This document shows positions 7,369-8,163 of a DNA stretch of 64,000 nucleotides, one piece after another. The stretch lies in assembly GCF_057098645.1 (NCBI RefSeq), contig NZ_CM169472.1; one strand, written 5' to 3'. A program made the translations under genes and the position numbers. Every line of letters starts with the position of its first letter. Position 1 is the stretch's first letter. The notes below the pieces were generated by a model. The model worked only from the letters and a program-made list of their open reading frames with translations, ran no database searches and was not told where the DNA came from.

Positions 7369-8163
7369 TTAAACAGCTGGCATATTGCGCCCGTAATAAA
7401 TCTCGCGCATTTCTTTCCACAGCGCAGCGGTAATTTCCTGGCGCTCGCTGTCGGTTAAATCTTCCGGTTTGGTGTGGAACATGTAGTGCTTAAGGTCGAA
7501 CTCTTTAAGCAACATCTTGGTATGGAAGATATTTTCCTGATAGACGTTTACATCCACCATGTCATACAGCGCCTTCATATCGTCAGACATAAAGTTCTGA
7601 ATCGAATTAATCTCATGGTCGATAAAGTGCTTCATACCGTTAATGTCGCGCGTAAAACCGCGCACGCGATAATCAATGGTTACGATATCGGACTCAAGCT
7701 GGTGGATCAGGTAATTCAGCGCCTTCAGCGGAGAAATCACGCCGCAGGTAGAGACTTCAATATCGGCGCGGAAGGTACATAAACCGCCTTCAGGATGACT
7801 TTCCGGGTAGGTATGTACGCAAATATGACTTTTATCGAGATGGGCAACGACCGTTTCTGGCAGTGGGCCGGGGTGTTCTGTTTTGTCGATGAGTTTCGGG
7901 TCAACCGGTTCTTCACTCACCAGAATAGTGACGCTGGCACCCTGTGGTTCGTAATCCTGGCGGGCGATGTTAAGAATATTAGCCCCGATAATGGAACAGG
8001 TTTCTGACAGGATTTCGGTCAGACGGTTGGCATTATAGAGTTCATCGATATAAGCAATATAACCGTCGCGCTCTTCGGCAGTTTTGGCGTAGCAGATATC
8101 GTAAATACAAAAACTCAGACTTTTGGTCAGATTATTAAAGCCATGCAGTTTCAGTTTTTTCAA
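7369..8163 (-). CDS. speD: S-adenosylmethionine decarboxylase proenzyme
   Basis: 264-aa [38 protein letters not shown]... matches E. coli SpeD; the first codon in this sequence is TTG (reverse complement of 8161-8163); AAGGAG Shine-Dalgarno upstream; 15 bp downstream of speE. Confidence 0.95.

Follow-up and report, generated by a model that had tools for sequence, protein, structure and literature searches.

The TTG start codon of Escherichia coli speD and its conservation throughout Enterobacterales

The speD gene of Escherichia coli initiates at TTG, and the combination of this codon with a strong Shine-Dalgarno sequence and an A-rich spacer is probably a selected, fixed setting of SpeD output. 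The start codon itself is genuine and is already recorded in reference annotations, so that nothing new is added as fact; the order-wide conservation of TTG together with a very strong Shine-Dalgarno sequence represents a modest addition to this known start. speD is a small and clean case of a "weak" start codon that has long been held by selection against the general trend of UUG being replaced by AUG. The gene lies in a stretch of 64,000 nt (contig NZ_CM169472.1 of assembly GCF_057098645.1, hereafter the window), which stems from an E. coli chromosome of the O145:H28 type; over positions 7300-8300 it matches NZ_CP028379.1 and its relatives at 100% identity, with 18 mismatches across the 64 kb.

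The coordinates of speD in the list of open reading frames equal those of the RefSeq/PGAP annotation (WP_000734287.1), and the translation of 264 aa opens with MKKLKLHGF (Table 1). On the minus strand, the junction between speE and speD reads CAG CCG TCC TAA GGA GAA GAT AAG AAA TTG AAA AAA CTG, in which the in-frame codons TAA GGA GAA GAT AAG AAA precede the TTG and a stop codon is therefore located six codons upstream. Within speD, GTG does not occur in frame before codon 82, nor ATG before codon 177, a position past the Lys111/Ser112 processing site. Since the upstream region is closed by an in-frame TAA and neither ATG nor GTG occurs before codon 82, the TTG is the only workable start. With the T before it, the Shine-Dalgarno sequence reads TAAGGAG and is complementary over 7 nt to the 3' end of 16S rRNA. 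A UUG preceded by a Shine-Dalgarno sequence at workable spacing, with no other in-frame start available, is what defines a canonical bacterial UUG site, and speD shows this arrangement. The earlier note had read the SpeD frame as starting at TTG, with AAGGAG upstream and no in-frame ATG. The sequence, RefSeq, the K-12 annotation and published initiation data (INRI-seq, see below) agree on the start, and the first ATG, at codon 177, is not usable.

Annotation in reference genomes leads to the same result, as PGAP and the K-12 reference (b0120) both give the TTG start, the latter with the same start region. K-12 speD (b0120, NP_414662.1) encodes an identical protein and shares the 40 nt upstream, the TTG, the Shine-Dalgarno sequence and its overlap with the speE stop; four nucleotide differences are found over the gene and these 40 nt, none of which alters the protein. 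The speD of the window is the same gene as K-12 b0120 in another strain.

Table 1. Positions of the speD start region, the speE-speD operon and further genes discussed in the text.
Feature	Position	Strand	Basis or remark
speD CDS	7369..8163	-	264 codons plus stop; S-adenosylmethionine decarboxylase proenzyme, E. coli-type (class 1a)
speD initiation codon TTG	8161..8163	-	sequence; same in K-12; INRI-seq peak; conservation
Spacer between Shine-Dalgarno and TTG, A-rich, 11 nt (AAGATAAGAAA)	8164..8174	-	sequence
Shine-Dalgarno AAGGAG of speD	8175..8180	-	11 nt before TTG
speE stop TAA	8179..8181	-	overlaps speD Shine-Dalgarno; same frame as speD; 15 nt before TTG
speD codons 111-112, AAA AGT (Lys-Ser, in KSHICVH)	7828..7833	-	sequence and translation; self-processing serine, giving the pyruvoyl group
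speE (spermidine synthase)	8179..9045	-	ATG start; upstream gene of speE-speD operon; annotation
Terminator-like hairpin	7337..7364	-	12-bp stem with 8 GC pairs, then TTTATTTACT; directly after speD stop
acnB frame	4044..6794	+	annotated start GTG 4197; open upstream to ATG 4044
panC	20795..21646	-	GTG start 21646-21644
Fimbrial usher gene	25512..28112	-	TTG start 28112-28110
pcnB	30380..31777	-	ATT start
hrpB	34756..37185		GTG start
fhuB	44107..46089		GTG start
yaeI	56779..57591		

The protein can be assigned to its family along its whole length. SpeD scores 491.5 bits against the TIGR03331 equivalog (cutoff 255.8), with profile positions 1-259 aligned to residues 3-261, and 53.9 bits against PF02675 (cutoff 25), while TIGR03330 aligns to residues 104-169; a full-length match above the curated cutoff places SpeD in the class 1a family (TIGR03331/PF02675). 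The translation contains the motif K111-S112-H-I-C-V-H117 together with Cys140, an observation that concerns the presence of the motif only; a requirement for Ser, His and Cys has been stated for the Thermotoga maritima enzyme (PMC10407285). The activity of the class is the Mg2+-dependent decarboxylation of AdoMet, which would also apply here given the identity with K-12 SpeD. Tabor and Tabor reportedly described, in 1987, a proenzyme of 264 residues that is cleaved at Lys111-Ser112. This length and numbering presumably imply a start at the TTG. A sequence search of the PDB returned no relative of SpeD, and no solved structure of its class was found.

In the operon, the product of speE matches Pfam PF01564 and PF17284. 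The hairpin that directly follows the speD stop likely marks the end of the operon transcript, and no promoter-like site was found inside speE; together, both observations fit speD as the distal gene of a speE-speD transcript. The hairpin is situated between the convergent genes yacL (+) and speD (-) and forms a near-perfect palindrome (TCTGGCGGAGC...GCTCCGCCAGA) that could terminate transcription in both directions, although only the minus-strand orientation scored as terminator-like. In Escherichia, speE and speD share one frame and are separated by TAA and five sense codons, so that readthrough of the stop would give a SpeE-SpeD fusion; as this frame relation is not conserved in other genera, it is probably incidental.

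Initiation at the TTG can be followed in published ribosome footprint data. INRI-seq utilizes a synthetic pool of all K-12 initiation regions for cell-free translation (PMC9825163), in which each gene is represented by 30 nt upstream and 150 nt of the ORF, and speE is absent from the speD template. The peak at the annotated speD start reached 47.7, 45.7, 61.2, 35.0 and 37.9 CPM, i.e. five of five replicates, and was called detected (PMC9825163). A footprint on a template without speE indicates that initiation at the speD TTG can proceed without translation of speE, and coupling to speE is not obligatory in vitro. The ratio of footprint to transcript, calculated from the INRI-seq table, is 0.90 for speD, 0.35 for speE, 0.88 for acnB, 0.15 for panC and 0.07 for htrE. 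In vivo, the Ribo-RET signal is 0 at speD and also at speE and at 82% of genes; this method verified only about 18% of annotated starts (PMC9825163). For the N-terminus of SpeD, the supplements of TRAINSPOTTER N-terminomics and of tetracycline ribosome profiling contain no speD entry. Among other genes of the region, INRI-seq detected the annotated start of acnB, as it did that of speD, and none for pcnB (ATT), hrpB (GTG) and fhuB (GTG) (PMC9825163). The K-12 panC (149-244 CPM) and htrE (7.6-13 CPM) annotated starts were detected as well. Two further calls differ from annotated starts: for K-12 fhuB, an out-of-frame ATC 14 nt upstream was called instead, and for K-12 yaeI an in-frame TTG 15 nt upstream.

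The start codon is fixed within the species. Of 5,425 complete E. coli genomes, 5,241 carry the exact 81-nt region centred on the speD start, TTG included, the other 184 having at least one mismatch somewhere in this region, and the same query carrying ATG or GTG gave no exact match in the 5,425 genomes. Because the identical region with TTG recurs in 5,241 genomes, a sequencing error at the start codon, which the earlier note had named as a possible objection, is excluded. Three of the roughly 5,425 speD-region matches come from sequences filed as plasmids, and one complete genome is without a match; these cases could reflect mis-assigned replicons or a real deletion.

Conservation extends far beyond the species. 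For a scan of the order, one genome per species was used and internal peptides served as search patterns, which kept the result free of bias from the start codon. This yielded 80 Enterobacterales loci, from Escherichia to Photorhabdus, with protein identities of 78-99%, and codon 1 of speD is TTG in all 80 species. Codon 2 varies (K/Q/H/S/N/R), and species outside the genus differ from E. coli at 48-72% of four-fold sites. Across the 80 species, none of 37 four-fold sites is invariant, and among 142 degenerate columns whose amino acid does not change, a single codon is fixed. When mapped on a neighbour-joining tree, the four-fold sites require a mean of 21.6 parsimony steps, 11.4 of which are transversions, and a single site (1/37) shows no transversion. 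Given the variation of codon 2 and the saturation of four-fold sites, the fixation of TTG does not result from a lack of divergence. On short branches, ancestral UUG starts change to AUG or GUG at 3.2%, and UUG starts are lost at about half the rate of matching four-fold sites and at four times the rate of AUG loss (Belinky et al., PMC5622118). The 80-species tree would be expected to contain about 5.5 losses at this typical rate, and the probability of observing none is approximately 0.004. The start of speE serves as an internal control, as GTG replaces ATG in at least three separate lineages among the same 80 loci. Fixation in E. coli and the absence of change across Enterobacterales mean that UUG itself, and not just any start codon, is kept by purifying selection in this lineage.

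The surroundings of the codon are less constant. speE is located upstream of speD in all 80 loci, and its stop lies between -14 and +77 nt relative to the TTG, mostly at 0-49 nt; speE overlaps the TTG itself in only about four of the 80 species. The geometry of the speE-speD junction drifts and the TTG stays. In Enterobacter spp. (L014, L015, L017 and L021; locus approximately 1498-1503), the speE TAA directly abuts the speD TTG (TAATTG); according to Osterman et al., juxtaposed stop and start codons are rare in E. coli operons and are selected against. In Erwinia psidii (L066, speD from 1501), the frame ends after 73 codons with the start region and TTG intact, which may indicate either a pseudogene or an error in assembly.

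Across the 80 species, the start region has the consensus TAAGGGGGTGAACnAAA-TTG, with TAAGGGGGTGA as the Shine-Dalgarno consensus. In the spacer, A occupies positions -1 and -2 in 79 species and position -3 in 69. The predicted duplex with the 16S rRNA 3' end is stronger for speD (median -12.4 kcal/mol) than for speE of the same genomes (-9.1 kcal/mol; paired p=7e-9), and in some species the match to the anti-Shine-Dalgarno sequence extends over as many as 12 complementary bases in a row. E. coli is an exception, in that its speD Shine-Dalgarno sequence (-9.1 kcal/mol, 11-nt gap) is weaker and more distant than that of speE (-12.9 kcal/mol); here the longest match is 7 nt, the centre of the Shine-Dalgarno sequence is 14 nt from the start and the 11-nt gap corresponds to the long end of the normal spacing range. 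Non-AUG starts tend to have stronger, compensatory Shine-Dalgarno sequences (Belinky et al., PMC5622118), and the combination of TTG with a strong Shine-Dalgarno sequence in most speD species matches this trend.

Outside Enterobacterales, a mixed picture is obtained. Among four gammaproteobacterial species, speD starts with TTG in Permianibacter, where speE is upstream, with TTG in Marinobacterium and Neptunomonas and with GTG in Gallaecimonas, the last three having no speE upstream; no ATG alternative is available in any of these four speD genes. When metagenomes were scanned for the motif G-F-N-N-L-T-K-x-L-x-F by means of a degenerate pattern, 76 SpeD-like loci were identified in 56 clusters, 55 of which are non-enterobacterial (39-74% identity). 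Between the upstream stop and the motif, 18 of these 55 clusters contain no in-frame ATG, and Shine-Dalgarno support assigns nine of them to TTG and nine to GTG; in 16 clusters ATG is the only option and 21 are ambiguous. Forced TTG in nine of 55 clusters exceeds the baseline of 4.35% (p=0.0006), with the reservation that the clusters are not phylogenetically independent. TTG as a family-wide rule for class-1a speD was rejected, since 16 of the 55 clusters can only use ATG. Two metagenome clades were noticed in passing. One GC-rich clade (L118, L121, L126, L127, L139, L159, L165 and L169; 54-61% GC) carries class-1a speD with the N-terminus (M)VKPLPRLKLQGFNN and a GTG start in every member, seven of the eight loci having no ATG alternative. 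The other (L095, L115, L152 and L157; 47-52% identity) has the N-terminus (M)FKRVxGxKIKLEGFNN and a forced TTG, with a gap of 11-13 nt from Shine-Dalgarno sequence to start that resembles the 11-nt gap in E. coli.

How a fixed setting of SpeD output could arise from these elements can be outlined as follows. Ribosomes would bind the Shine-Dalgarno sequence overlapping the speE stop and initiate at the UUG. Initiator tRNA decodes UUG and the protein begins with formyl-Met. The strong Shine-Dalgarno sequence and the A-rich spacer would keep the speD site competitive for ribosomes, and UUG would lower productive initiation in comparison to AUG, with the probable net effect that SpeD output is fixed relative to SpeE. 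An excess of SpeD would be expected to waste S-adenosylmethionine and to raise spermidine. Several published observations on UUG are relevant here: in a standard context, UUG yields 6-8 times less reporter expression than AUG; a UUG to AUG change in gshA raised basal synthesis 3.0-fold; and UUG, as one of three canonical starts, reaches 10-100% of AUG and can equal AUG in an optimised context in vitro. In the native speD context, some attenuation by UUG is probable.

Three observations count against this reading. If dosage were all that mattered, an ATG with a weaker Shine-Dalgarno sequence would serve equally well, yet it is found in none of the 80 species; as many combinations of start codon and Shine-Dalgarno sequence give the same output, their absence leaves room for a property that is specific to UUG. 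ATG is also common in distant class-1a relatives, as seen in the ATG-only clusters. Finally, simple weakness of the site does not agree with an INRI-seq ratio of speD that exceeds that of speE. SpeD is the enzyme of the step that commits the pathway to spermidine, and initiation at UUG is known to be modulated by polyamines. On the question of SpeD being rate-limiting, a spermidine-engineering paper offered no decisive evidence.

A UUG-specific property could consist in regulation. Here, the codon would act as a sensor, with polyamines, Mg2+ or ppGpp altering its acceptance by initiator tRNA and SpeD tracking the polyamine or growth state, a reading that is possible but rather unlikely. In its extended form, equally doubtful, the speD UUG would be an ancient, selectively maintained sensor and SpeD would rise with the putrescine/polyamine pool, since polyamines promote the binding of initiator tRNA specifically on UUG. 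A related known system is the polyamine modulon (cya, spoT and gshA with UUG; cra, uvrY and frr), with which speD shares UUG, a Shine-Dalgarno sequence and a tie to polyamine physiology; translation of the modulon genes has been shown to be stimulated by polyamines and to lose this response upon conversion of UUG to AUG. For gshA, the published polyamine stimulation decreased from 2.4-fold to 1.1-fold after this conversion. The modulon class termed "inefficient initiation codon" is characterized by UUG or GUG with a normally placed Shine-Dalgarno sequence, which is the arrangement seen in speD, and the long 11-nt gap of E. coli speD is, like the UUG, a feature seen in modulon members. In addition, ppGpp and nutrient limitation have been reported to act differently on non-AUG and AUG starts. 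The invariance of UUG alongside a varying Shine-Dalgarno sequence is a better fit to a UUG-specific property than to dosage, and the over-representation of TTG among the distant clusters, non-independent as these are, points in the same direction.

Against this, speD does not appear in the published member lists of the polyamine modulon, for which reason it is not counted among the members here, and none of the papers searched links speD with TTG. Stimulation by polyamines would moreover amount to positive feedback, which would be an odd design if the signal were anything but the substrate putrescine; the expected direction would then be feed-forward from putrescine and not feedback. The ATG of many distant speD homologues is a further argument against a sensor. 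If the sensor were real, speD would belong to the polyamine modulon without having been recognised as a member, and control of AdoMetDC at the level of translation would be analogous in logic, though not in mechanism, to uORF control in eukaryotes. In eukaryotic AdoMetDC mRNA, a polyamine-responsive uORF stalls ribosomes and provides negative feedback. Translation of the same enzyme is the control point for polyamine homeostasis there; the speD of the window has no uORF and would have to rely on a different mechanism.

It is improbable that the TTG is merely tolerated as a frozen accident, with SpeD made mostly by reinitiation of ribosomes that have finished speE 15 nt upstream, a process in which the identity of the start codon would be of little consequence. 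In nearly all 80 species, less than 50 nt separate the speE stop from the TTG, and in E. coli the stop overlaps the Shine-Dalgarno sequence; in published work, reinitiation accounts for about 40% of the initiation at a second cistron that begins 20 nt after a stop. Selection on start codons is, in general, weak (Belinky et al., PMC5622118). The arrangement also recalls translationally coupled junctions, with which it shares a stop located shortly before the next start and inside its Shine-Dalgarno sequence; it departs from them in that the geometry is not conserved, initiation takes place on a template without speE and TTG is kept where speE is absent. A neutral site would have drifted, considering that none of the 37 four-fold sites is fixed and about five losses are expected at the usual UUG rate. 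Initiation on the INRI-seq template, the drifting junction and the retention of TTG or GTG in the three species without speE upstream of speD all count against this account, and for the same reasons obligatory coupling of speD to speE is not supported.

A constraint other than start function, in which the invariant T is held by RNA structure, by a binding site for an sRNA or protein or by overlapping coding, is very improbable. Around the TTG, high conservation extends to the AAA at positions -3 to -1 and to codons 3-10; the downstream conservation is explained by the protein, as synonymous third positions vary, and the speE frame reaches the TTG too seldom for overlapping coding. A single-sequence fold of the E. 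coli start region was no better than shuffled sequences (z=0.39), RNAalifold detected 0 conserved pairs in the 80-species alignment, and RNA structure around the speD start was rejected on these grounds. That the start is mis-assigned or the TTG a sequencing error, with SpeD starting elsewhere, is hardly credible: the missing in vivo Ribo-RET peak is set against the stop six codons upstream, the lack of ATG or GTG before codon 82, a family profile that begins at residue 3, the INRI-seq footprint and the identical region in 5,241 genomes.

The TTG of speD had been placed by the earlier note in a window with an unusually high share of non-ATG initiation codons. The individual starts that were listed, i.e. 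GTG for acnB (4197), hrpB (34756) and fhuB (44107) and ATT for pcnB (31777, minus strand), are all as annotated, and two were absent from that list, the GTG of panC (21646, minus strand) and the TTG of the fimbrial usher gene (28112, minus strand). RefSeq annotates 56 CDS with a start in the window (49 ATG, 4 GTG, 2 TTG and 1 ATT), corresponding to a non-ATG share of 7/56 (12.5%). Three 50-kb control regions of the same genome, annotated with the same pipeline, contain 14 non-ATG starts among 160 (8.8%), which does not differ significantly from the window (Fisher p=0.44), and the probability of at least seven in 56 is 0.33-0.90 at baselines of 10-18%. Published values are similar: about 88% of annotated E. 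coli starts are ATG and approximately 12% non-ATG (PMC9825163), or 83/14/3% for AUG/GUG/UUG, i.e. 17% non-AUG (Hecht et al.). At 12.5% against 8.8% in the controls and 12-17% in the literature, the share is not unusual, and a handful of non-ATG starts is the expected number for a 64-kb window of E. coli.

The accompanying suggestion that these codons mark genes whose levels may need limiting is not supported for the set as a whole. In the literature consulted, it is documented for pcnB only; for speD it is weakened by the ratio of 0.90 and the strong Shine-Dalgarno sequence. As the INRI-seq ratio is higher than that of speE (0.35) and the Shine-Dalgarno sequence of Enterobacterales is unusually strong, the speD start is not simply a weak site. 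The analogy is with pcnB, which together with infC makes up the two E. coli genes confirmed to start at AUU; the features in common would be a non-AUG start and a product that is kept scarce. AUU is a non-canonical codon that is discriminated against by IF3. It initiates at approximately 1-2% of AUG, in comparison to 10-100% for the UUG used by speD, and in INRI-seq pcnB gave no footprint whereas speD did. For acnB, the open frame on the plus strand continues upstream of the annotated GTG to an ATG at 4044, giving an ORF of 916 aa.
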